A program made the position numbers and the translations under genes. The notes under the pieces are model-generated. The model searched no databases. It was not told where the DNA came from and saw only the letters and a list, made by a program, of their open reading frames with translations. Positions 1,683 to 41,528 of a DNA stretch of 64,000 nucleotides are shown here, one piece after another; positions within the stretch are counted from its first letter, which is position 1, and the number at the start of each line of letters is the position of its first letter. The DNA lies in the NCBI RefSeq assembly GCF_048403405.1, contig NZ_CP183129.1. One strand, written 5' to 3'. This DNA is from Escherichia coli. GTDB taxonomy: Bacteria > Pseudomonadota > Gammaproteobacteria > Enterobacterales > Enterobacteriaceae.

Positions 1683-2394
1683 ATAAATATCCTCCGGCAT
1701 AGCCGGAGGTTTTTCAAATGCGCCTGTAAGGCTCTGTTACCAGCCGCGCCCTAACAGGCGCATACGATCTGACATTTGCATTCAACTTCGTTACTTACGG
1801 CCCGTAAACGGGCTGCCCGGATAGGGAATCGATAACTGCTCCCCCATTTTATCCTCTTCAAGCTGGTGCTTTATGTAGTCCTGTATCTTCGCCGTGTTCT
1901 TACCCACCGTATCGACATAGTACCCTCGGCACCAGAACTCCCTGTTTCTGTATTTGAATTTCAAATCCCCAAACTGCTCGTAAAGCATCAGACTGCTTTT
2001 CCCTTTCAGATATCCCATAAAGCCGGATACGCTCATTTTGGGTGGGATTTCCACAAGCATATGGATATGATCTGCGCAGCACTCTGCTTCCAGAATCCGT
2101 ACGCTTTTCCACTCACACAGCTTTCTCAAAATACTGCCTATCGCCCTACGCTTCTCTCCGTAAAACGCCAGTCTTCGGTATTTCGGCGCAAAAACTATGT
2201 GATATTTACAGTTCCAGCGGGTGTGCGCTAAGCTCTTTTCGTCCCCCATTGGGACCCCCTTTTGATTTCTTGTTTGACACTTGCAGTTGCCAGACCGCAA
2301 GGTGTTTTAACAAATCAAAAGGGGTTTTAATAACTGGCTCAAAGCTGAAAGCTTTCCGGAACCCCCAGCCTAGCTGGGGGTTTTCTGTGCACAA
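1680..2394 (-). mobile_element. IS200-like insertion sequence (IS200/IS605 family, tnpA only), copy A; ends +/-3 bp
   Basis: About 715 bp nearly identical to the reverse complement of 40814..41528; contains a single Y1 transposase gene; conserved terminal hairpin cctccggcatagccggagg. Confidence 0.85.
1791..2249 (-). CDS. tnpA: IS200/IS605 family Y1 (HUH) transposase TnpA
   Basis: 152 aa from MGDEKSLAHTRWNCKYHIVFAPKYRR; HUH motif HIHMLV; within ORF 1791..2300. Confidence 0.9.
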   Translation of the reverse strand: MGDEKSLAHTRWNCKYHIVFAPKYRRLAFYGEKRRAIGSILRKLCEWKSVRILEAECCADHIHMLVEIPPKMSVSGFMGYLKGKSSLMLYEQFGDLKFKYRNREFWCRGYYVDTVGKNTAKIQDYIKHQLEEDKMGEQLSIPYPGSPFTGRK

Positions 2395-2420
2395 AAAAAT
2401 GGCGCTTCTTAAAGCGCCAT
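2393..2420 (-). terminator. Rho-independent terminator of fdnGHI
   Basis: Hairpin atggcgc/gcgccat followed on the minus strand by a run of 7 U (A-run 2393..2399 on plus), 25 nt downstream of fdnI stop; the IS200 end abuts this U-tract. Confidence 0.7.
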
Positions 2421-2444
2421 TTTCAGCTTAAAGTTCAAAAGAGA

Positions 2445-3098
2445 TTATATCCCTTCTTCACTCTCTTTTTTCGCTTCTGCCTTCTCGATTTCACGATACC
2501 AGCGCGGATGGTGTTTCTTCGCCCAGCGACGGCTCACCTTCCCTTCGATCATCCCTTTAATCGATCCTTTCACCCAGAATGCCATATACATATGGATCAG
2601 GATGGCGTGGATCAGGATGATACCCGCAGCCGCGTGAATCAGCAGGCTGTAGCGAACAACCTGCATCGGGAAGTACTGCGCAAAGTACGGACGCCAGATA
2701 ATCACCCCGGTCACCAGCAGCACGAAAATCATGCTCATGATCGACCAGAACATCATCTTTTGCCCGGCGTTGTACTTACCGACATCCGCCACTTTGTGCT
2801 CATTGCCTTTTAATACTTCGACAATGTTCAACAGCCACGGAATATCTTTCTTATCCGGGATGTTGTGATGCACAAAACGCACAAACATAAACATCAGCGC
2901 GACGAAAATCGCAATGCCGAAGAACGGGTGCAAAATGCGTCCCATCTGCGGCGTACCGAAGGTTTGCGTCAGCCATTGCAGCGTCGGGAAGAAGAATGAA
3001 ATCCCGGACAGCGCCACCAGGAAGAAGCAAATCACCACGGTCCAGTGACAGGCGCGATCAATAAATTTGGTGCGCACAATCATTTTCGACTTACTCAT
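2445..3098 (-). CDS. fdnI: Formate dehydrogenase-N gamma subunit (cytochrome b556)
   Basis: 217 aa from [12 protein letters not shown] within ORF 2445..3140; multi-TM b-type cytochrome; 8-nt overlap with fdnH. Confidence 0.93.
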
Positions 3099-3975
3099 GA
3101 TGATCCTCCTCGTCATCGTCCACTTCCTTATTCGGGCCAATACCGATGTAGTGGAAAATCAACCCGGCAAAAGTGGCAATAAAGCCAGCCGCTGCCAGCG
3201 GTTTCAACGCGCCTTTCCACAGGCTTACCGAGGTGTCGATCTTCGGATCTTTCGGCAGACCGTGATACAGCTCCGGCTGATCGGCGTGATGCAGCACGTA
3301 CATAACGTGCGTACCACCGACCCCTTCCGGGTTGTAGACGCCAGCATGTTCGTAACCACGCGCTTTCAGTTTCGCCACGCGCTGTTCCGCCAGCTCCAGC
3401 ATCTCCTTCTTGGTGCCGAAGTGGATAGCCCCGGTCGGACAGGTTTTCACACAAGCCGGTTCCTGGCCGACGCTGACGCGATCGACGCAGAGCGTGCATT
3501 TATATACCCGGTTATCCTCTTTGTTGAGGCGCGGAATATTAAACGGACACCCGGCAATGCAGTAACCACAGCCGATGCAGTTTTCCGACTGGAAATCGAC
3601 AATCCCGTTAGCGTACTGAATGATTGCACCAGCAGACGGGCACGCCTTCAGGCAGCCCGGATCTTCACAGTGCATACAGCCGTCTTTACGGATCAGCCAC
3701 TCCAGCTTGCCGTTCTGTTCGGTTTCGCTAAAGCGCATCACCGTCCAGGACTTGGCGCTCAGATCGGCGGGGTTATCGTAAACCCCGACGCAGTGCCCCA
3801 CTTCATCACGGATGTCGTTCCACTCCGAACACGCCACCTGACAGGCTTTACAACCGATACAGGTGGAAACGTCGATAAGTTTCGCGACTTCTGCTTTGTA
3901 ATCACGCACCTGAGAAGGCGGCGTGATGGAGTTAGTTGCGGACCTTTTGATAATGTCCTGCGTTTCCATAGCCAT
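3091..3975 (-). CDS. fdnH: Formate dehydrogenase-N beta subunit (4x[4Fe-4S] ferredoxin-type)
   Basis: 294 aa; repeated CxxCxxCxxxCP clusters ([58 protein letters not shown]); C-terminal TM anchor. Confidence 0.95.
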
Positions 3976-3987
3976 CTGTTCGCCCCC

Positions 3988-6900
3988 TTACGCCTTCTCA
4001 ATGTTGACTAAGAACGCTTTATATTCCGGCGTTTGCGAGTTTGCATCACCGACATTCGGCGTCAGAGTGTTAGCGATATAACCTTTACGCGCGACACCCT
4101 CAAAGCCCCAGTGGATTGGAATACCCACCGTTTCAACCTGCTGACCGTTTACATTCAGCGGCTTCAGACGGCGCGTTACCACAGCCACCGCGCGGATAAA
4201 GCCACGCTTGCTGGATACGGTGACACGGTCGCCATTGGCGATGCCTTTCGCCGCCGCCAGCGTTTCGCTGATTTCCACAAACTGTTCCGGCTGAGCAATG
4301 GCGTTGAGCAATGCATGCTTAGTCCAGGTGTGGAAGTGCTCGGTCAGACGATAGGTCGTACCCACATACGGGAACTGCTCTTTTTTACCCATCCGCAGCG
4401 CGTCTTGTTCATACAGACGAACGACCGGGTTAGACACCACGTTCGGATGCAGCGGGTTAGTGCCCAGCGGCGTTTCAATTGGCTCGTAGTGTTCCGGGAA
4501 CGGACCTTCCGCCATTTTGTTGATGGCAAACAGGCGTCCCATCCCTTCCGGCTGCATGATAAACGGTCCGGTTAGTGTACCTGGCGCGGCATTGCCGAAG
4601 TCCGGAATATCGTTACCCGTCCACTTGCTGCCGTTCCACTGGATCAGCATCCGTTTCGGATCCCACGGTTTACCGTTGATATCCGCCGAAGCACGGTTGT
4701 AGAGTACGCGACGGTTGAGCGGCCACGCCCAGGCCCATCCCAGCGTATTCCCCAGACCGGACGGGTCGGAGTTATCGCGGTTAGCCATCTGGTTGCCCTG
4801 CTCTGTCCAGCTACCGGTGTAGATCCAGCAAGAAGATGCGGTTGTACCGTCATCACGCAGATGCGCAAAGCTACTCAGCAACTGACCTTTCTTCGCAATC
4901 AGCACGCCATTGGCATCATAGAGATCTTCCAGCGCGTAGCCGTTGTTCTCTTTAGCTACTTCGTCAGATTGCGGTTCGTGCGGCTGCTTGTAGTTCCAGC
5001 TCATCTTCATCAGCGGTTCTACGCCTTTACCACCTTCGGCCTGGTACAGCTCGCGCAGATGATGGTAGATACCCGCCAGAATTTCGCCGTCGTTACGCGC
5101 TTCGCCCGGCGCGTCCTGACCTTTCCAGTGCCACTGCAACCAGCGACCGGAGTTAGCAATAGAACCATCTTCCTCAGCAAAGCAGGTCGAAGGCAGACGG
5201 AATACTTCAGTCTGAATAGACGCAGGATCGACATCGTTCGACTCGCCGTGGTTCTGCCAGAAGGTAGAAGTTTCAGTCACCAGCGGATCGATAACCACCA
5301 TATACTTCAGCTTGCTCAGGCAGCTTACCACTTTGTTTTTGTCCGGGAAGGACGCAACCGGGTTAAAGCCCTGGCAGAAATAACCGGTGACTTTGCCTTC
5401 ATCCATCATGTTGAAATACTTGATGACGTCGTAGGTCTGGTCCCACTTGGGCAGCCAGTCGTAGCCCCAGTTGTTCTCTTTCTGCGCAGCATCGCCGTAG
5501 AAAGATTTCATCAGGCTAACGAAGAACTTCGGATAGTTGCTCCAGTAGTTCACCTGATCAGCCAGCGTCGCTTTCGGCGTGTTCGCTTCCAGATACGACT
5601 GCAAATCAACCTGTTTTTCTGACGGCAGCGTCAGATAACCCGGCAGGCTGGTAGAGAGCAGGCCTAAGTCGGTCAGCCCCTGAATGTTGGAGTGACCACG
5701 CAATGCGTTCACGCCGCCACCGGCCATACCCATGTTACCGAGCAGTAACTGGATCATCGCCATAGTACGGATGTTCTGCGCACCCACGGTGTGCTGCGTC
5801 CAGCCCAGCGCGTAAAGGAAGGTGGTTGTGCGATCCGGTGCGCTGGTGGAGGCCAGCACTTCACACACTTTCAGGAAGTCGGCTTTTGGCGTACCACAGA
5901 TGTTTTCTACTACGTCCGGCGTGTAGCGGGAAACGTGCTCTTTCAGCAAGTTCCACACACAGCGCGGATGAGTCAGTGTTTCATCGCGTTTCGCATAGCC
6001 GTTTTCATCGAACTGATAGTTCCAGGACGATTTATCGTATTGACGTTTTTCAGCGTCGTAGCCGCTGAACAGACCGTCTTCGAAAGCAAAATCATCACGC
6101 ACCAGCAGACTGGCGTTGGTGTAATGCTTAACGTATTCGGCGTTGATTTTGTTGTTTTCGATCAGGTAGCGCAAAACGCCAGACAGGAACGTAATGTCCG
6201 TACCGGAACGAATAGGTGCGTAAATATCCGCTACAGAAGCGGTACGCGTAAAACGGGGATCGACAACGATCAAGGTTGCATCGTTGTTGTTTTTCGCTTC
6301 CATCGCCCAGCGGAAACCGACGGGATGCGCTTCAGCAGCGTTACCGCCCATCACCATTACGACGTTAGCGTTTTTGATATCCACCCAGTGGTTGGTCATC
6401 GCACCGCGACCAAATGTTGGAGCAAGACTTGCTACCGTTGGTCCGTGTCAGACGCGCGCCTGGTTGTCTACCGCCAGCATCCCGAGGGAGCGGGCAAATT
6501 TCTGGGTCAGCATCCCGGTTTCGTTGCTGGCACCGGAGGCACACAGCATACCGGTAGAAAGCCAACGGTTTACCGTTACGCCCTGCTCGTTCTTTTCAAT
6601 AAAGTTAGCGTCACGGTCAGCTTTCATCAGCTTCGCAATACGGGAGAATGCTTCATCCCAGCTAATGCGCTGCCATTTGTCAGAACCTGGCGCACGATAT
6701 TCCGGGTAGCGCAGACGGTTTTCGCTGTTGACGTAATCCAGCAAACCGGCCCCTTTCGGGCACAGCGCACCACGGCTTACCGGATGATCCGGGTCACCTT
6801 CAATGTGATAAATCGCTTCTCTGGCGTTTTTCGCGCCATCACCCAGGCTATACATCAATAGCCCGCAACCTACGGAACAGTATGTGCAGGTGTTACGGAT

Positions 6901-7035
6901 CTCTTTAGCGCGTAATAATTTGTAGTTTCGCGCCTGAGCCAGTGCTTGCTTTGGGGCAAAGCCCAATGCCGCTACTGTTGTTCCAGCCATACCGCCCGCG
7001 CAGATTTTAAAAAATTGTCTGCGACTGACGTCCAT
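3988..7035 (-). CDS. fdnG: Formate dehydrogenase-N alpha subunit, selenocysteine-containing molybdoenzyme; in-frame UGA at 6448..6450 decoded as Sec
   Basis: ORFs 6448..7035 (195 aa, Tat signal RRQFFK) and 3988..6399 are in the same frame separated only by one TGA; local sequence ...NQARV-U-HGPTVA matches the Sec active-site context; total 1015 aa. Confidence 0.93.
6400..6447 (-). other. SECIS-like stem-loop region immediately 3' of the fdnG UGA
   Basis: mRNA sense CACGGACCAACGGUAGCAAGUCUUGCUCCAAC... can fold (GCAAGUCUUGC) directly after the UGA, as expected for bacterial SelB-dependent recoding. Confidence 0.6.
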
Positions 7036-8406: not shown

Positions 8407-9507
8407 ATGAAATTAAAAATAGTTGCGGTGGTTGTAACTGGTTTGTTAGCTGCGAACGTAGCACACGCTGCCGAAGTCTATAACAAGGATGGTAATAAAC
8501 TCGACCTTTATGGCAAGGTTACCGCTCTACGTTATTTTACTGATGATAAGCGTGACGATGGTGATAAAACTTATGCCCGTCTCGGCTTTAAAGGAGAAAC
8601 GCAAATCAATGATCAAATGATTGGTTTTGGTCACTGGGAATATGATTTTAAAGGCTATAACGATGAAGCCAACGGCTCGCGCGGTAACAAGACCCGTCTG
8701 GCCTATGCAGGTTTAAAAATTAGTGAATTTGGCTCTCTGGACTATGGTCGTAACTACGGTGTCGGCTATGACATTGGTTCATGGACCGATATGTTGCCAG
8801 AATTTGGTGGCGATACCTGGAGTCAGAAAGATGTCTTCATGACATACCGTACTACCGGTGTGGCAACCTATCGCAACTACGATTTCTTCGGCTTAATTGA
8901 AGGTCTGAACTTTGCCGCGCAATATCAAGGCAAAAATGAACGCACTGACAATGGCCATCTTTATGGTGCTGACTACACGCGTGCCAATGGTGACGGTTTC
9001 GGTATCTCCTCAACTTATGTTTATGATGGCTTTGGTATCGGTGCGGTGTATACCAAATCCGATCGGACAAATGCGCAGGAAAGAGCCGCTGCTAATCCTC
9101 TCAATGCCTCCGGTAAGAATGCAGAACTGTGGGCTACAGGTATAAAATATGATGCCAACAACATCTACTTTGCAGCTAATTACGCTGAAACATTAAACAT
9201 GACCACCTATGGCGATGGTTATATCTCTAACAAAGCACAAAGTTTTGAAGTAGTGGCACAATATCAATTCGACTTCGGCTTGCGCCCATCACTCGCTTAC
9301 CTGAAATCGAAAGGCAGAGATCTGGGCCGCTACGGCGACCAGGACATGATTGAGTATATCGACGTTGGTGCGACGTATTTCTTCAACAAAAATATGTCGA
9401 CCTATGTTGATTATAAAATCAACCTGATTGATGAAAGCGACTTTACCCGTGCCGTAGATATTCGCACCGATAACATCGTCGCAACGGGCATTACCTATCA
9501 GTTCTAA
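8407..9507 (+). CDS. ompD: General porin of the OmpC/OmpF/PhoE family, OmpD/NmpC-like; intact counterpart of the K-12 yddL pseudogene position
   Basis: Signal peptide [21 protein letters not shown] then [16 protein letters not shown]; C-terminal ...GITYQF; 366 aa; sits next to yddG as ompD does in Salmonella (symbol by synteny and family, from memory). Confidence 0.8.
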
Positions 9508-9676: not shown

Positions 9677-10936
9677 ATGACCAATATTAATACAGCTTGT
9701 GTAAAAAATAATGCCAGTTATCAATTAAATAACGCATTACCTAACAAAGAAACCATCTCCAGCAATTTTTGTGAACGACTGGCAAAATGGGGTAATAAGT
9801 CGCTTAATAATGGTGAAGAAAGAGCAATTGCCGTAGAGCGAATTAAAGAAGCTTACAATTCGAACATGGCATCTCTTGATTTGTCATATCTTGATTTGAG
9901 TGAGTTACCGACTATCCCCTCGACAGTTAACACGTTAAATCTGGAAAACAATTGTCTCACTTGTCTTGACTTTACTGACAATGCCAGCCTCGTCAATATC
10001 AACCTCAGCTTTAATAAAATTAAAACGATAACCTTTCCAAATGAATCAAAACTGGAAAATATTTATATTGATCACAACAATCTGGAAAGTTTGGATTTAA
10101 AAAATCAGCATTCATTGGTTAACCTGGAAGCGCAAAATAACAATCTGACAAAAATTAACATTTCTGATAGTTATAAACTGAAATTTCTTAATCTTGATTA
10201 TAACAAGCTAGCATCGCTGGATCTCTCCCGGCAAGAATCTCTGATTGAGTTAAGTGCCCATCACAATATGATCACTGACCTTATATTACACAATCATCCC
10301 AGGATGAAAAAAATCACTTTAAACGACAACCATATTGCACATTTAAACGCGAAAACCACTACAAAGCTGGAATATTTAAACTTAAGCAATAACAATTTAT
10401 TGCCAACAGATGACATTGATCAATTAATATCATCAAAACATCTTTGGCATGTATTAGTTAACGGCATCAACAATGATCCACTTGCCCAAATGCAGTACTG
10501 GACTGCAGTAAGAAATATAATTGATGACACTAATGAAGTGACCATTGAATTATCTTATAACCTGGCAATCACAAATATCGATACCAGCGATGAACATCTT
10601 GTAGAAGTAAGCGAGAATTCCGAAGGAAATCATATAAAAGACAATGACTCAATGTCTATTCGTTATAGATCAAAATATTATTCCAGAGAGTACGATTTAA
10701 TAGAAGAAGAAACAATATTTTCTGACGCAGAACTAAAAGCCATTCTGCCTATGCATCGCATGTACGGGGTTGGTGACTATAAGTCAAATTCCTCTTCTCT
10801 ACCCTCACACTCGGGGCTAAAGGACCCAACGGGCACACCCGTCTGTTATTATATTCATAATGAGGATAAACCTTCCTTAGGTTATGGTTCAACACCCAAT
10901 AATTGGTTAAGCCAATCCTTTTCTACAGAGTTATAA
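9677..10936 (+). CDS. yddK: Leucine-rich repeat protein with an IpaH/SspH/YopM-like LRR N-terminal region; no signal peptide; no NEL ligase domain
   Basis: ORF 9671..10936 (GTG; ATG at 9677 chosen); N-terminal ...ERIKEAYNSNMASLDLSYLDLSELPTIPSTVNTLNLENNCLT followed by about 21-22 aa LxxLxLxxNxL repeats; AT-rich; symbol by position relative to K-12 yddK. Confidence 0.75.
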   Translation: MTNINTACVKNNASYQLNNALPNKETISSNFCERLAKWGNKSLNNGEERAIAVERIKEAYNSNMASLDLSYLDLSELPTIPSTVNTLNLENNCLTCLDFTDNASLVNINLSFNKIKTITFPNESKLENIYIDHNNLESLDLKNQHSLVNLEAQNNNLTKINISDSYKLKFLNLDYNKLASLDLSRQESLIELSAHHNMITDLILHNHPRMKKITLNDNHIAHLNAKTTTKLEYLNLSNNNLLPTDDIDQLISSKHLWHVLVNGINNDPLAQMQYWTAVRNIIDDTNEVTIELSYNLAITNIDTSDEHLVEVSENSEGNHIKDNDSMSIRYRSKYYSREYDLIEEETIFSDAELKAILPMHRMYGVGDYKSNSSSLPSHSGLKDPTGTPVCYYIHNEDKPSLGYGSTPNNWLSQSFSTEL

Positions 10937-25918: not shown

Positions 25919-27016
25919 ATGGCTGAACGAAGAAAAACGCATCACTCATGGAAAACCCGCCGCGATATGGTTATTCGCGGCATGACGATTAGTTTGCCAT
26001 GGTTTGCTTTTATCAATGTCAGTTTTGCATTGATAATTTTGCTGCGCCGTGTTCTGTTTAATGACCTTACTCCACCCTGGTTAAATGAAAAAAGCCTTAT
26101 ACATTCTATTGATATATCTGCAACGGGTATTCTGCTGATTTGCAGTGGTTTACTACTCATCCCTCGGCAAAAAACATTACCTATCCAGGTGCTATTAGTT
26201 GCCCTGAGCCTGCTATGGTCATGGTGTAGTTATCACTTTATTGCGTACTGGACGCTGCAGTTTGCTTATCCACTATGTGTATTATTAATGCTTAGTGGCG
26301 TTGTCGCACTTTATTTCCATACCCCATCATTGCTCGCATTTGTCATTCCCTTATGGTTCACCACTCCAATAGCGAGTCTTATGCTTAATCAACAGATCAA
26401 TATTCATTTTGCTGTTGTATGGTGTATTTTTTCACTGGCGCTATATGGTGGGCGACTCATTTTGTTACGTTGGTTTGAAGAAGCATGGGTACAAAACAGT
26501 TATAACAACCAGTTAATTAATCGCCTTGATGCATTAGCACATCGTGATCCTTTAACTGGGATAGCAAACCGACGTGCAATGAACAGTATCTTACACGACG
26601 CGATGGATAACGGCGGGTCATTTGCTCTTATTATGCTGGATGTCGATTTTTTTAAACGTTACAACGACACTTACGGGCATCCTGCTGGGGATCGTTGTCT
26701 AATACAAGTTGCCGACGCTCTACAGCGTTCAACTCGCCAGTCGGAGGATGTTGTTGTCCGTTATGGTGGCGAAGAGTTTGCCATCATACTTTTTAATGCA
26801 ACATTGCCGGAAGCAGAGACGGTAGCAGCCAGAGTGAAGCAAGAACTTAAACTGGCAGCTATCCCACATCAGGCATCTGCTGTTAATGCATTTGTTACGG
26901 TTAGTCAGGGGATTACCTGTTCTGCTCCCGCAAAAACGGCTGAACAAATTATTTCAGATGCCGACGCTGCGTTATACCGGGCGAAAGAAAGTGGGCGAAA
27001 TCGATGGGCTTTATAA
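25919..27016 (+). CDS. Membrane-anchored GGDEF diguanylate cyclase (multi-TM N-terminal sensor-like domain)
   Basis: 365 aa; about 6 predicted TM helices then GGDEF domain with RYGGEEF active-site motif and D-x-LTG; start codon uncertain (ATG at 25919 lies 10 nt after a terminator U-tract with no SD). Confidence 0.8.
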   Translation: MAERRKTHHSWKTRRDMVIRGMTISLPWFAFINVSFALIILLRRVLFNDLTPPWLNEKSLIHSIDISATGILLICSGLLLIPRQKTLPIQVLLVALSLLWSWCSYHFIAYWTLQFAYPLCVLLMLSGVVALYFHTPSLLAFVIPLWFTTPIASLMLNQQINIHFAVVWCIFSLALYGGRLILLRWFEEAWVQNSYNNQLINRLDALAHRDPLTGIANRRAMNSILHDAMDNGGSFALIMLDVDFFKRYNDTYGHPAGDRCLIQVADALQRSTRQSEDVVVRYGGEEFAIILFNATLPEAETVAARVKQELKLAAIPHQASAVNAFVTVSQGITCSAPAKTAEQIISDADAALYRAKESGRNRWAL

Positions 27017-27089
27017 GCATTAGGGGACTGGACAGATTACGTCTCTCCTCGCTTAACAAGGGCTGACGGAGGGTAATAATTGTCTATAG

Positions 27090-27641
27090 CTATCTTCTTA
27101 GCGATGTCTTTCTGGTATCACATTGGATCGGTGCAATTATTTTTCCTTTAATACCCATTATGTTAAGAAATTCAGAAACAGCTGTAATCTCATTGTTTTT
27201 TTCATTCGTCTTGATCTTACAAGGAATCTGACTGTGCATTATTGAGAACACACTAATAACGTGAATCGCTCCCTTGCGACGACTCTTGTCATAAGAGTAC
27301 CGGAGCGTTTTTCCATCAATTGCAATGACGTCTTTATCATCTGAAGAATGGCAGTCAAGCATCCAGTTAATAAAGCACTCATGAAATTTTTCAGGACTGA
27401 TACAGGATACAACTCTGGCAATGGTATCGTGAACAGGAATACCATTATCAAAATCACCATATTGCTTCAAAAAATCGAGATGTGTTTCCCCAAAATCCTC
27501 TATATCTTCCCAGCCTTCTGCACCCGAAATAACGGCACAAATAGTCAACAGTAGAATATCCGATAATTTATGTTCCACTTTCCAGGCTTGTCTGTAATCG
27601 GGGATAATAGAAATATGTCCCATCAATTTTTTAAGTTCCAT
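27090..27641 (-). pseudogene. ISAs1-family (H-repeat, YhhI/YdcC-like) transposase, 3'-truncated fragment
   Basis: N-terminal about 166 aa match the H-rpt protein ([12 protein letters not shown]...[11 protein letters not shown]...IDGKTLR) then the frame diverges and stops; full-length homologs are about 378 aa. Confidence 0.8.
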
Positions 27642-27789
27642 TTTGTTCTCCTTAATTATGTAAGGAGTATTTGATCATGTATACGCAATAAAAAACAGCT
27701 TCAGGTAATGAGGAATATCTCAATTGTTAAACATAAAATGCGAATTGTCTAGTACAAAAAAGCAGCGTTACGTGATCTTTCCGTGGATC

Positions 27790-27912
27790 GTCAAATTGTT
27801 CGAGAGAAAATACCAACATGATGGATTTTACTGTAAAAGTAATGTCGTAGTTTAAAAACTCATCATCCGGTAAAGCCTTGTGGGGCGTGGGCTTTCATAC
27901 TTTTACCCTGAT
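27790..27912 (-). repeat. ISAs1/H-rpt element upstream end (copy 1 of a conserved roughly 120-bp block)
   Basis: tcaaattgttcgagagaaaataccaacatgatgg...cttgtggggcgtgggctttcat...ccctgat is about 85 percent identical to 34529..34650. Confidence 0.65.
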
Positions 27913-28226
27913 GTCTGCTATACGCCGGACACCCTTTACGTAGCATTCGGAATTCACCCGTAAATTTATCACGGCGGTATCACGAAACCTCCGGTTCTGA
28001 TGCCGCTTAGGACTAACGACACGTCAACACAGGTTCGGGTTTATTCATTTCACTGTATCTCATATAATCTGAGCACTCCCCCTGCGCTCGCTACTATGAC
28101 TCTTTACCACAGCAACCGGGGTTGTTTGGGATCGGCTTTCAACAGCAGATCCCGGTGGCTATTGCAAGTAAGTCTACTTTCCACATCAGTGTTACTGACA
28201 CAGAAAATAATGAGTTATGATCCTTG

Positions 28227-28712
28227 TCATATTTTTAATATAGCCCCATGAGCTATAGGATCAAAACCTTCTAACCATGAGGTGTTTTTATCGAATAATG
28301 CACCTGTTATATTTATATCGCCATATCTATCACATAATAAATTAGCGCCACATAAGTCAGCACCAGAAAAATTTGAATCTTTAACGTCTGCATTGCAAAA
28401 GGTTGAATTAGTTAATATAGCACCCTCAAAGTTTGCACCTATTGACCTTGAATTACTAAAGTCACTTCCAGTGAAATCTGAGTTATTAAGAATAGCGTTC
28501 ATCAGAGCCGCATTGCGAAAGACAGCATTTCTAGTTGATGTATGTTGAATCATTACATTTCTTAAATGGGAATTTTCAAATTTCGCCCCATCAAGACAAT
28601 AACCATTGAGGATGGCACGATGTAGATCCATCCCGCTAAAATCATATCCAGCAAGAGTGGTACTATCTATATCAAGAAATTTATTGGTTATTAAAAACGC
28701 GATTCTTATCAT
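28227..28712 (-). CDS. Pentapeptide-repeat protein; putative cognate immunity protein of the adjacent Rhs toxin
   Basis: 161 aa; tandem A(D/N)(L/F)xx pentapeptides ([11 protein letters not shown]..., [33 protein letters not shown]); start ATG overlaps Rhs stop (ATGA) so translationally coupled; AT-rich. Confidence 0.8.
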
Positions 28713-31700
28713 CTATTCCCCCAATCATCTAACTCCGGAAAAATTTGGCTAAACGGATATAGTGGTGCCGATAATGGACGCGTACCTGGCCGCTCAGGAG
28801 GAAGTTTATCACATAACAGACCCGCAACCATCCTGTGATTACCATTAACAATCACATTCCCATCCATATCAACCGGTGGTGCTCCACTACCATCTTCCAG
28901 CATTTGTACGTAGTGAGCTACTACGGGTACTGAGACTTTTTGTTGTACTGTCAACAAGGGACTGTTGGCCACAACCATCCTGATGTTTTCAGGTGTCGTA
29001 GGTAAACATTTAGTCTTCTCTTGACTAAAGGTATCATCCCACAATTTTGTTAAACCCATCACTGCCTGTTGTCTGTATTTATCCATGGGGTCAGCAATCA
29101 ACCAAGATGGACCTGACTGCTCTATGGAATCTTCTCCGGAGAGACCCAACGGATCTATCTTAGTAGTTGGATTCAATGGATACTGATACAGGTTCCATGC
29201 ACCTCTTAGCCCAATGGGATCCTGGGTGATATACCGCCCCTGCAACGGGTCATAGTACCGGTTGCGGTTATAGTACAGCCCCGACTCCTCATCATACTGC
29301 TGCCCCGGCAGACGGTACGGCTGTTGCAGTTGCTGCGCGCTGGTTTCGCCCAGCAGGTTTCCCCACTCGTCATACTCCCCCTGCCACGCCGTTTCCCCTT
29401 CCGGGCTGATGAGCGCCTGCGGCAGCCCCCGGTGGTCGCAGTGGTAAAGATGAAGTGTCCTCTCCGGGATGTATTCCGCCTCCATCTGGTTTTTCATCTG
29501 TTCCGCCGTCAGCCCGCACTGCTGAAGCCATGCCTCACTCTCCGCACTCACCGCACCCGCGCGCAGTTCCCGCTCCAGCCTCCCCAGCATCACCGACAGC
29601 TCCGCCGGTAGCGTCACCCCCGTGTCCTCCTGCAACACCTCCGCCAGACTCCGGTGCCGCGCCTTCGCCTGTTCACCATTCTCTGTTTCGATTCTGATGA
29701 GCGGCGTGAAGCTCCCCGGCTGGTATACCGTCTGGATACGCGTGGTGCCGGTCTGTACCGTCGTCAGCCTGTCACCGTCCCACCCGTACCAGGTCTCCTC
29801 CGGTTTACGCGACAGCGACATCCACCCCGTCAGGTCACGCTCCCGCCGCCACACCCGTTTCCCCGTCCGGCGGCCCAGCGGGTCATAGAGGTAGCGGCTC
29901 TCCACCTGTGGCTCGCCGTGCTGTATCCGCGTGTAGAACACCAGGCGGTGCTGGCTGTCGTAATGGTAGTGGTGCGTCCGCTCGTCGTGCATCCGTATCA
30001 CCCCTTCCGGGATACGGTCCGTCTTCTCCGCCAGCCTGCCGTATTCATCGTAGCGGTAGACATAGTGCGCATCTTCCGTGATGCGGTTATCCGGCCACGC
30101 CGTGAAGGTGCTGTCCGGGTGCAGTTCCGGGTCCGGCAGCCGGTTTCCTGCCGGGTCCGTCGCATACGGGATATCGATATCCAGGTTCGCCGCCGTGGTG
30201 TGAACGCCCGTCAGTCTTCCCGTGTCGCTGTAACGGTACTTCCGGCTCTCCTGCGGGCCGCTGATGCGCACCAGTTGCCCGTTATCGTTCCACGTATACT
30301 CACGGTCAAGCTGCGGAAGGTTCAGGTGCCTGCTCCGGAGCTGCCCTGTGAGGGTGTACGCCGTGGCCTGTTCGTACCCCGCTGTACTGCCCGCCCCGCC
30401 GAAGCTGCGGGCCGTCTCACGGTGCAGCCGGTCCCGCGTGTACTCGACCAGCGGCGTTCCGCCCAGCTTCATCCCCGCAAGATAACCGCTGCCATACGTC
30501 AGCCACTCCACCGGCGGCAGACCGTCCGGCTCCTGACGGGTCGCCAGCCCCTGTTCGCTGTAGACGTGCCTCGTCTCATGCTCCCACAGCATCTCCCCCG
30601 TCTCCTGGTTCTCCACCGTCTGCCGTTCGCCCGTCAGGCGGCCTTTATCGTCATAGCCGTAGTGGACCGCCACACGGTGGCCTTCGCTCAGGTGGCTGAT
30701 TTCTGTCAGCCAGCCGTGGTCGTCATACTGCCACTGCTCCGCCGGGTCGCCGTTCACCGTCCGGTGCGTGATGCGCCCGGCGTCATCGTAGTACCACTGC
30801 GTGACCTGCCCCTCATCCTCGCTGCGGATGAGCTGCCCTGTGGCGCTGTACCGGTAACGCTGTGTCCTGCCGTCAAAGCCGCGCTGCTCCGTCAGCCTGT
30901 CCACCGGGTCATACCGGAACGTGGACTGGCTGCCGTTCTCGTTGGTCAGCACGGTGATGCGCCCGGCGGCGTCATACTCCATGCTGCGCGTCAGTCCGCC
31001 CTGCGTGGTGCTGACGGCCTTTCCCCACGCATCATACTGTGTCTCACTCCGGCTGCCGTTCGGGGCAATGATAGCGGTGAGGTCGCCTGCGGCGCTGTAC
31101 TCATAACGGGTTTCACGTCCCTGCGCATCCTTCTGACTGACCAGTTGACCACGCGGGTTATAACTGCTGTAAGTGCTGATGCCTTCCTCCCGGTGAACCG
31201 CCGTCCTCTGACCGTACCGGTCGTATTCATACCGCGTCGTGTACCCTGAACAGTCCGTAAATGCCTGAAGCTGACCGTACCGGTTTCGCGTTATTCTCCG
31301 CCTCACCCCGGTTCCGTCTTCCACCGCACAGGGCAGGCCACTGCGGGAAGAATCATAAAACCAGCGCGTAATGTTACCGTTGCGCGAGACCTCTTCCGCC
31401 AGCCTGCCCTGACGGTCATATTTCCGGCTGCGGCGCAGCCCGTCCGGGTACGTCACTGACGTCAGTTGCAACTGGTTGTTGTAACCATACCGTACCGTCC
31501 TGCCGTCCGGCAGTATCACTGAAGTCAGCTTTCCCGACGCCATATGCAGCCGGTACTCCGTCCGCCGTCCCGCCGCATCCGTCTGCGCCTTCAGCCTCCC
31601 CGCCTCATCATACTCGCTGCGGGTGATGCTCCCGTCCCCATACTCCTTCTTCACCACCCGCTTCAGGCCGCCCTCGCCCTCCGTGTACAGCACCTCCCGC

Positions 31701-40813: not shown

Positions 40814-41528
40814 TTGTGCACAGAAAACCCCCAGCTAGGCTGGGGGTTCCGGAAAGCTTTCAGCTTTAAGCCAGTTATTAAAACCCCTTTTGATTTGTTA
40901 AAACACCTTGCGGTCTGGCAACTGCAAGTGTCAAACAAGAAATCAAAAGGGGGTCCCAATGGGGAACGAAAAGAGCTTAGCGCACACCCGATGGAACTGT
41001 AAATATCACATAGTTTTTGCGCCAAAATACCGAAGACAGGTGTTCTACAGAGAGAAGCGTAGAGCAATAGGCAGTATTTTGAGAAAGCTGTGTGAGTGGA
41101 AAAGTGTACGGATTCTGGAAGCTGAATGCTGTGCAGATCATATCCATATGCTTGTGGAGATCCCGCCCAAAATGAGCGTATCCGGCTTTATGGGATATCT
41201 GAAAGGGAAAAGCAGTCTGATGCTTTACGAGCAGTTTGGTGATTTGAAATTCAAATACAGGAACAGGGAGTTCTGGTGCAGAGGGTACTACGTCGATACG
41301 GTGGGTAAGAACACGGCGAAGATACAGGATTACATAAAGCACCAGCTTGAAGAGGATAAAATGGGAGAGCAGTTATCGATTCCCTATCCGGGCAGCCCGT
41401 TTACGGGCCGTAAGTAACGAAGTTGGATGCAAATGTCAGATCGTGTGCGCCTGTTAGGGCGCGGCTGGTAAGAGAGCCTTATAGGCGCATTTGAAAAACC
41501 TCCGGCTATGCCGGAGGATATTTATTTA
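40814..41528 (+). mobile_element. IS200-like insertion sequence, copy B (inverted relative to copy A)
   Basis: Near-identical to the reverse complement of 1680..2394 with a few substitutions; boundaries +/-3 bp. Confidence 0.85.
40959..41417 (+). CDS. tnpA: IS200/IS605 family Y1 transposase TnpA
   Basis: 152 aa from MGNEKSLAHTRWNCKYHIVFAPKYRR; differs from copy A at a few residues (e.g. D3N, LAFYG to QVFYR). Confidence 0.9.
   Translation: MGNEKSLAHTRWNCKYHIVFAPKYRRQVFYREKRRAIGSILRKLCEWKSVRILEAECCADHIHMLVEIPPKMSVSGFMGYLKGKSSLMLYEQFGDLKFKYRNREFWCRGYYVDTVGKNTAKIQDYIKHQLEEDKMGEQLSIPYPGSPFTGRK

Follow-up and report, generated by a model that had tools for sequence, protein, structure and literature searches.

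Does the in-frame UGA in fdnG of Escherichia coli break the gene, or is it read as selenocysteine (Sec)? The question is raised by a 64,000-nucleotide (nt) stretch of an E. coli genome (contig NZ_CP183129.1 of RefSeq assembly GCF_048403405.1; hereafter, the window), for which a list of open reading frames (ORFs) gives fdnG on the minus strand as two pieces, one of 195 aa (6448..7035) and the other of 803 aa (3988..6399). A preliminary description of the window had noticed this split and proposed that the single TGA at 6448..6450 is a Sec codon in an intact, recoded gene; both pieces are indeed present in the ORF list. Based on the reading frame, on homology, and on the RNA element that follows the codon, fdnG is almost certainly intact, with the UGA at codon 196 (6448..6450, minus strand) recoded to Sec. 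The feature is the canonical Sec196 codon of E. coli fdnG with its selenocysteine insertion sequence (SECIS), and it is already known, textbook biology.

The gene, which encodes the alpha (catalytic) subunit of formate dehydrogenase-N, occupies window positions 7035..3988 on the minus strand. Its translation is a single frame of 1016 codons (1015 plus the stop), and the only stops in that frame are codon 196 (TGA, 6450..6448) and the terminal codon 1016. Across this span, the remaining two minus-strand frames are interrupted by 51 and 61 stops, so a frame that stays open for 820 codons past the TGA is open far beyond chance. Because the 803-aa call begins at the internal Met213, the first Met past the TGA, 16 codons (HGPTVASLAPTFGRGA) are left between both ORF calls, and the pieces add up to the full protein (195 + 1 + 16 + 803 = 1015). 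Read in the mRNA sense from 6460 down, the codons GCG CGC GUC lead into the UGA, which is followed by these 16 codons, CAC GGA CCA ACG GUA GCA AGU CUU GCU CCA ACA UUU GGU CGC GGU GCG, and then by the AUG of Met213. RefSeq annotates one fdnG coding sequence (CDS) of 3048 nt (WP_077626096.1) at exactly 3988..7035, without a pseudogene flag. The proposal of an intact gene is upheld by the one in-frame TGA, the lack of any other break, and the single RefSeq CDS; further disruptions of the frame had been named as grounds for rejecting it, and 7035..3988 holds none besides the TGA.

Homology leads to the same answer. With the TGA translated as X, FdnG aligned over residues 1-1015 to residues 1-1015 of PDB 1KQF_A (2392 bits), described as 'formate dehydrogenase, nitrate-inducible, major subunit', so that the alignment with E. 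coli FdnG that had been suggested as a check gave a full-length match. The window TGA lies opposite position 196 of 1KQF_A, shown as 'X' in the alignment. We take Sec196 to be, from the 1KQF structure, a ligand of the molybdenum in the bis-molybdopterin guanine dinucleotide (bis-MGD) cofactor; the structure paper is reportedly that of Jormakka et al. 2002. Scored against TIGR01553, the NCBIfam equivalog for formate dehydrogenase-N subunit alpha, FdnG reached 1622.7 bits (cutoff 814.2), with residues 2-1014 covering profile positions 1-1009 of 1009. At least five substitutions separate FdnG from 1KQF_A in the alignment to about residue 989 (D127/E, F342/L, A666/S, L821/P, and A933/N, given as window/1KQF), none of which is close to Sec196 or to the Fe-S cysteines. 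Cys50, 53, 57, and 92, the [4Fe-4S] ligands of FdnG (PMC3636253), are all present in the translation. The N-terminal twin-arginine (Tat) signal region (6937..7035, minus strand; extent approximate) has S-R-R-Q-F-F-K at residues 4-10, and a Tat signal peptide is known in FdnG (PMC3636253). The 3.3-kb fdnG region is 100.0% identical to at least 10 independently sequenced complete E. coli genomes, where the annotation reads fdnG and then fdnH, and it was matched in 5425/5426 complete E. coli genomes, with about 95% or more identity in nearly all of them.

The fdnG of E. coli K-12 (b1474; PDB 1KQF/1KQG) is the same gene, with 1015 aa, Sec196 in the context ARV-U-HGPTVASLAPTFGR, and the order fdnGHI, and its product shares the four [4Fe-4S] cysteines (50, 53, 57, and 92) and the twin-arginine motif with FdnG of the window. 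Unlike K-12, the window strain has the substitutions relative to 1KQF (at least five) and a copy of IS200 just downstream of fdnI. Mass spectrometry has identified Sec196 of E. coli FdnG and FdoG in the peptide VU196HGPTVASLAPTFGR, with Cys never found at position 196, and in a selC mutant fdnG and fdoG mRNA translation ends at codon 196 (PMC3636253). The window encodes exactly this peptide, and its ARV-U-HGPTVA, aligned to position 196 of 1KQF_A, is the Sec196 context of FdnG/FdoG, in line with the conserved Sec context that the preliminary description had claimed. The first demonstration is credited to Berg et al. 1991 (J Biol Chem 266:22380), as that work is cited in PMC13188914.

Because the gene lies on the minus strand, the mRNA runs from 6450 down to 6395, and the orientation given in the preliminary description is corrected accordingly. 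In a scan of the whole window at gathering thresholds, the Rfam model RF01989 (SECIS_3) matched 6453..6395 (minus strand) with 84.3 bits (gathering score 63; E = 1.4e-18) over its full length (model positions 1-59 of 59). The 59-nt match opens 3 nt before the UGA, includes it, and lies within the coding sequence, so a stretch able to form a stem-loop does follow the TGA at once, as had been described. With the fdhF-type model SECIS_2 (RF01988; gathering score 70), the score was only 28.8 bits, and the element was therefore assigned to SECIS_3. The stem-loop proper (6405..6447, minus strand) comprises a lower helix, an internal loop, and an upper hairpin, with a minimum free energy (MFE) of -12.7 kcal/mol (z = -2.1). 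Judged by its pairing and by the geometry of fdhF, the upper hairpin (GGUAGCAAGUCUUGCUCC; 6419..6436, minus strand) is the putative SelB-binding minimal element, and it spans nt 15-32 when the U of the UGA is numbered 1. In this numbering, the base of the upper hairpin pairs G15 with C32 and G16 with C31, U17 (6434) is bulged, A18-A22 pair with U26-U30 to form the upper stem, and G23 (6428), U24 (6427), and C25 make up the apical loop.

With the upper hairpin beginning 11 nt past the UGA, U17, G23, and U24 occupy the same positions as in K-12 fdhF; a comparison with the fdhF SECIS had been suggested as a check. These three features are SelB-binding determinants of the E. coli SECIS (review, PMC8659212). 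Like that of fdnG, the experimentally dissected fdhF element (Sec140) has its hairpin 11 nt past the UGA on a G-G/C-C base, with U17 bulged out and G23-U24 in the loop (PMC8659212). The two differ in the upper stem (AGCAA/UUGCU with the 3-nt loop GUC in fdnG; UGCA/UGCA with the loop GGUC in fdhF) and in the lower stem. The bSECIS model (PMC13188914) describes a loop of 3-9 nt that opens with G, 4-16 bp in the upper stem, a UGA-loop distance of 16-37 nt, and an MFE of -7.5 kcal/mol or lower; the corresponding values in fdnG are the loop GUC, an upper stem of 7 bp (5 + 2, with one bulged U), 19 nt, and -12.7 kcal/mol. The stem-loop (6447..6405) opens at the first base past the in-frame UGA, inside the coding region, which agrees with the location given in the same model.

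The preliminary description had named the absence of selABCD from the genome as a finding that would speak against Sec. No sel genes lie within the window, and they were examined in the closest complete genome, that of E. coli MS 69-1 (NZ_CP146675.1), and across the species. MS 69-1 shares 100.0% identity with two stretches of the window (3.3 kb and 24 kb); full identity of the window with this genome was ruled out by a single-nucleotide polymorphism at window position 18626 and at least one later indel. In NZ_CP146675.1, selA (144978-146369), selB (146366-148210), the tRNA-Sec gene selC (69503-69597), and selD (2301501-2302544) are all intact and carry no pseudogene flag. K-12 selAB, selC, and selD were each matched in 5424-5425/5426 complete E. 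coli genomes at 80% coverage or more.

Conservation of the codon was examined with the pattern R-V-(TGA/TGC/TGT)-H-G-P-(T/S)-V-A in one genome per species, and the counts that follow refer to the 120 matches listed. TGA was followed by HGPTVA (FdnG/FdoG type) in 97 matches and by HGPSVA in 12, and the remaining 11 combined a Cys codon (TGC or TGT) with HGPSVA. In the FdnG-type context the codon is TGA in 97/97 of the matches listed, with Cys codons confined to the HGPSVA context. A Streptomyces match (L080), in which the FdnG context does not continue, was a chance match and was dropped, and the FdnG-type set then held 61 distinct 60-nt sequences among the matches listed. The upper helix is 99.5% paired in these 61 sequences. 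Two of its pairs vary, namely alignment columns 21-33 (GC 48, AU 9, GU 4) and columns 24-30 (AU 41, CG 17, GC 3). In both, the paired bases are wobble positions of two codons (Val GUA/GUG with Ala GCU/GCC in the former; Ala GCA/GCC/GCG with Leu CUU/CUG/CUC in the latter), so their covariation is no by-product of protein conservation. Cells in which both sides had changed numbered 29, compared with 7.3 +/- 2.8 in shuffles (0/500 shuffles reached 29), and pairing fell from 92% to 26-49% when the 3' partners were slid by 1-3 columns. Base-pairing of the upper helix is kept by compensatory changes at these two pairs. The loop bases G26 and U27 (corresponding to G23 and U24) were left free by the search pattern, yet they are invariant in the 61 sequences.

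Nothing contradicts recoding at this codon, but several points limit what the evidence for it can carry. By folding energy alone, the 59 nt of 6453..6395 (minus strand; z = -0.77) do not stand out, and the 51 nt of 6450..6400 (minus strand) fold at -14.6 kcal/mol with z = -0.76, 41/200 shuffles being as good. Values for the 43-nt stem-loop at 6447..6405 (minus strand; -12.7 kcal/mol) and the 18-nt upper hairpin at 6436..6419 (minus strand) are z = -2.11 (8/200 shuffles as good) and z = -2.06, respectively. Of the folding of 6400..6447 that had been suggested as a check, the stem-loop itself stands, but its energy is not decisive alone, as the z of -0.76 for 6400..6450 illustrates. Because the z values over 51 and 59 nt are not significant, we rely on the covariance model and on covariation: hairpin stability alone is weak, and the case is carried by the covariance-model score and the cross-species covariation. 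In the lower helix, the fit of the E. coli sequence to the consensus is imperfect: A8/C48 and A12/G44 do not pair when the Rfam register is used, and the E. coli MFE structure has this helix shifted by one, with a bulge. Over the 61 sequences, pairing in the lower helix comes to 86.3% with the Rfam register and 83.4% with that of the MFE structure; the register is ambiguous, and neither is clearly better. The 120 matches listed are a non-random, arbitrary sample and no census. Many of alignment columns 1-23 were set by the search pattern itself, so that U20 (corresponding to U17) is invariant by design and not by observation. Finally, the sel genes described above are those of the closest complete genome and of the species, not those of the window's own genome.

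A separate observation concerns the lower helix: most Pseudomonas and Burkholderia-type sequences match the Rfam SECIS_3 register, unlike the lower stem of enterobacterial fdnG/fdoG.

Three other explanations of the TGA were weighed, which even together are highly improbable and each of which is contradicted by evidence. The codon might be a genuine nonsense mutation that leaves fdnG a pseudogene, with a 195-aa fragment and an untranslated remainder, and mechanical ORF calling does split the gene there. However, the same TGA stands in the K-12 fdoG and fdhF contexts and in 97/97 orthologous contexts among the matches listed, the 820 codons past it stay open against 51-61 stops in the other frames, a SECIS follows it, RefSeq sets no pseudogene flag, and the Sec196 peptide has been seen by mass spectrometry (PMC3636253); we consider this explanation very unlikely. 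A sequencing or assembly error that replaced a Cys codon (TGC or TGT) would be in keeping with those formate dehydrogenases that have Cys at this position, as do 11/120 of the matches listed, but among those matches the Cys codons occur with HGPSVA (FdhF/YdeP-like) in 11/11 cases and never with HGPTVA. Moreover, at least 10 genomes that were sequenced independently carry the 3.3-kb region with 100.0% identity, and a SECIS beside a Cys codon would have no reason to be conserved, which leaves such an error extremely unlikely.

The same very low probability applies to readthrough without Sec, in which a near-cognate Trp or Cys tRNA would decode the UGA by a SECIS-independent route and yield a sulphur- or Trp-containing enzyme. 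Low-level misreading of UGA occurs in E. coli, but nothing that we found supports a role for it as the main route here. Cys has never been found at position 196, and in a selC mutant translation of fdnG and fdoG terminates at codon 196 (PMC3636253), both of which contradict this route, and the dedicated pathway is favoured by the conservation of the SECIS and by the intact sel genes.

With recoding to Sec as the preferred explanation, the course of events at this locus can be outlined. The mRNA just 3' of the UGA is predicted to fold into the SECIS hairpin, with its bulged U17, a loop opening with G23-U24, and an apical part 11 nt past the UGA. From established knowledge, SelB with GTP and Sec-tRNA(Sec) would bind the apical hairpin, and once the UGA is in the A site, the tethered SelB would deliver Sec-tRNA(Sec) in competition with release factor 2 (RF2). 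Translation would then run on for 819 codons, and the product would be the catalytic subunit of the nitrate-inducible, periplasm-facing formate dehydrogenase-N. In the published model, SelB-GTP-Sec-tRNA(Sec) on the apical hairpin delivers the tRNA as the UGA reaches the A site, with the lower helix unwound (PMC13188914). For the fdhF element in vivo, PMC4513850 describes recoding as competing with RF2, with an efficiency of about 30-40%.

The paralogue fdoG of E. coli, which encodes formate dehydrogenase-O alpha, also has Sec at codon 196, and its SECIS is the same because the 71 nt that begin 3 nt before the UGA are identical in both genes. It differs in its separate locus (fdoGHI-fdhE) and in its regulation. 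Over their whole length, fdnG of the window and K-12 fdoG share 74.4% DNA and 76.9% protein identity. Their longest identical run is this 71-nt segment (6453..6383), which covers the UGA and the SECIS and reaches 12-22 nt beyond the 3' edge of the latter; the next longest run is 35 nt. Codons 196-215 are identical in 20/20 cases, compared with 59% identical-codon use gene-wide. Judging from the two sequences, the 71-nt identity could be the expected mark of RNA constraint over the coding sequence, or of gene conversion. Because the run overshoots the SECIS and the enterobacterial lower-stem register is shifted, selection or gene conversion might also act beyond the SelB-binding hairpin, for example on a fold of the lower stem or of the sequence downstream that adjusts ribosome pausing and the efficiency of recoding, although we regard this as unlikely.

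Directly downstream of fdnG, the operon fdnG-fdnH-fdnI continues with the genes of the other two subunits, both above their NCBIfam cutoffs and both annotated in RefSeq. The Fe-S beta subunit gene fdnH (3091..3975, minus strand; TIGR01582, 482 bits against a cutoff of 334.7) is next, and the cytochrome b gamma subunit gene fdnI (2445..3098, minus strand; NF007558, 486.9 bits against a cutoff of 339) is last. A copy of IS200 (1683..2445), with tnpA at 1791..2249 and an STnc490 match at 2259..2382 (both minus strand), lies directly downstream of fdnI, between fdnI and yddM, and could affect the 3' end of the operon. A further copy is found at about 40826..41418, with STnc490 at 40826..40949 and tnpA at about 40960..41418 (both plus strand). 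In each copy, the Rfam match to STnc490, which we take to be the IS200 antisense/5' RNA known as art200, scored 146 bits. The element is multi-copy, occurring at up to 35 places per genome and at 20 in MS 69-1, and the insertion downstream of fdnI is common to the closest strains at 100% identity.

In the segment 8407..12251, between yddG and narU, 8407..9507 encodes a 366-aa porin annotated as 'OmpC', 10268..10555 is a truncated hypothetical pseudogene, and 10998..12251 codes for a leucine-rich-repeat protein. To our knowledge, these genes are absent from the same position in K-12, and the porin is presumably an ompC/ompN-like paralogue, not ompC itself. Elsewhere, 28227..~34480 holds a gene for an RHS element core protein (28709..~32990, minus strand) followed by a possible immunity gene, which encodes a small pentapeptide-repeat protein. 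Two degraded ISAs1 (H-repeat) transposase pseudogenes flank this region, and beside these lies a yncG pseudogene broken by a frameshift and an internal stop. Rfam also matched group-II-D1D4-2 at 28051..28159 (minus strand; 48 bits against a gathering score of 36), inside an unannotated gap of about 590 bp between an ISAs1 transposase pseudogene (27091..27641) and the pentapeptide-repeat gene (28227..28712) downstream of the RHS core protein. No further intron domain was matched in 26800..29000, a stretch with no space for a reverse-transcriptase ORF, and the match appears to be a piece of a group II intron among Rhs and IS sequences.

As one of the three classic selenoprotein genes of E. coli (fdnG, fdoG, and fdhF), fdnG has been known since 1991, and its Sec residue has been confirmed by crystal structure and mass spectrometry. 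The finding raises no new question, and its value is for annotation only: naive or six-frame callers would give fdnG as two fragments or as a pseudogene, an error that is avoided by recognising the UGA together with its SECIS.

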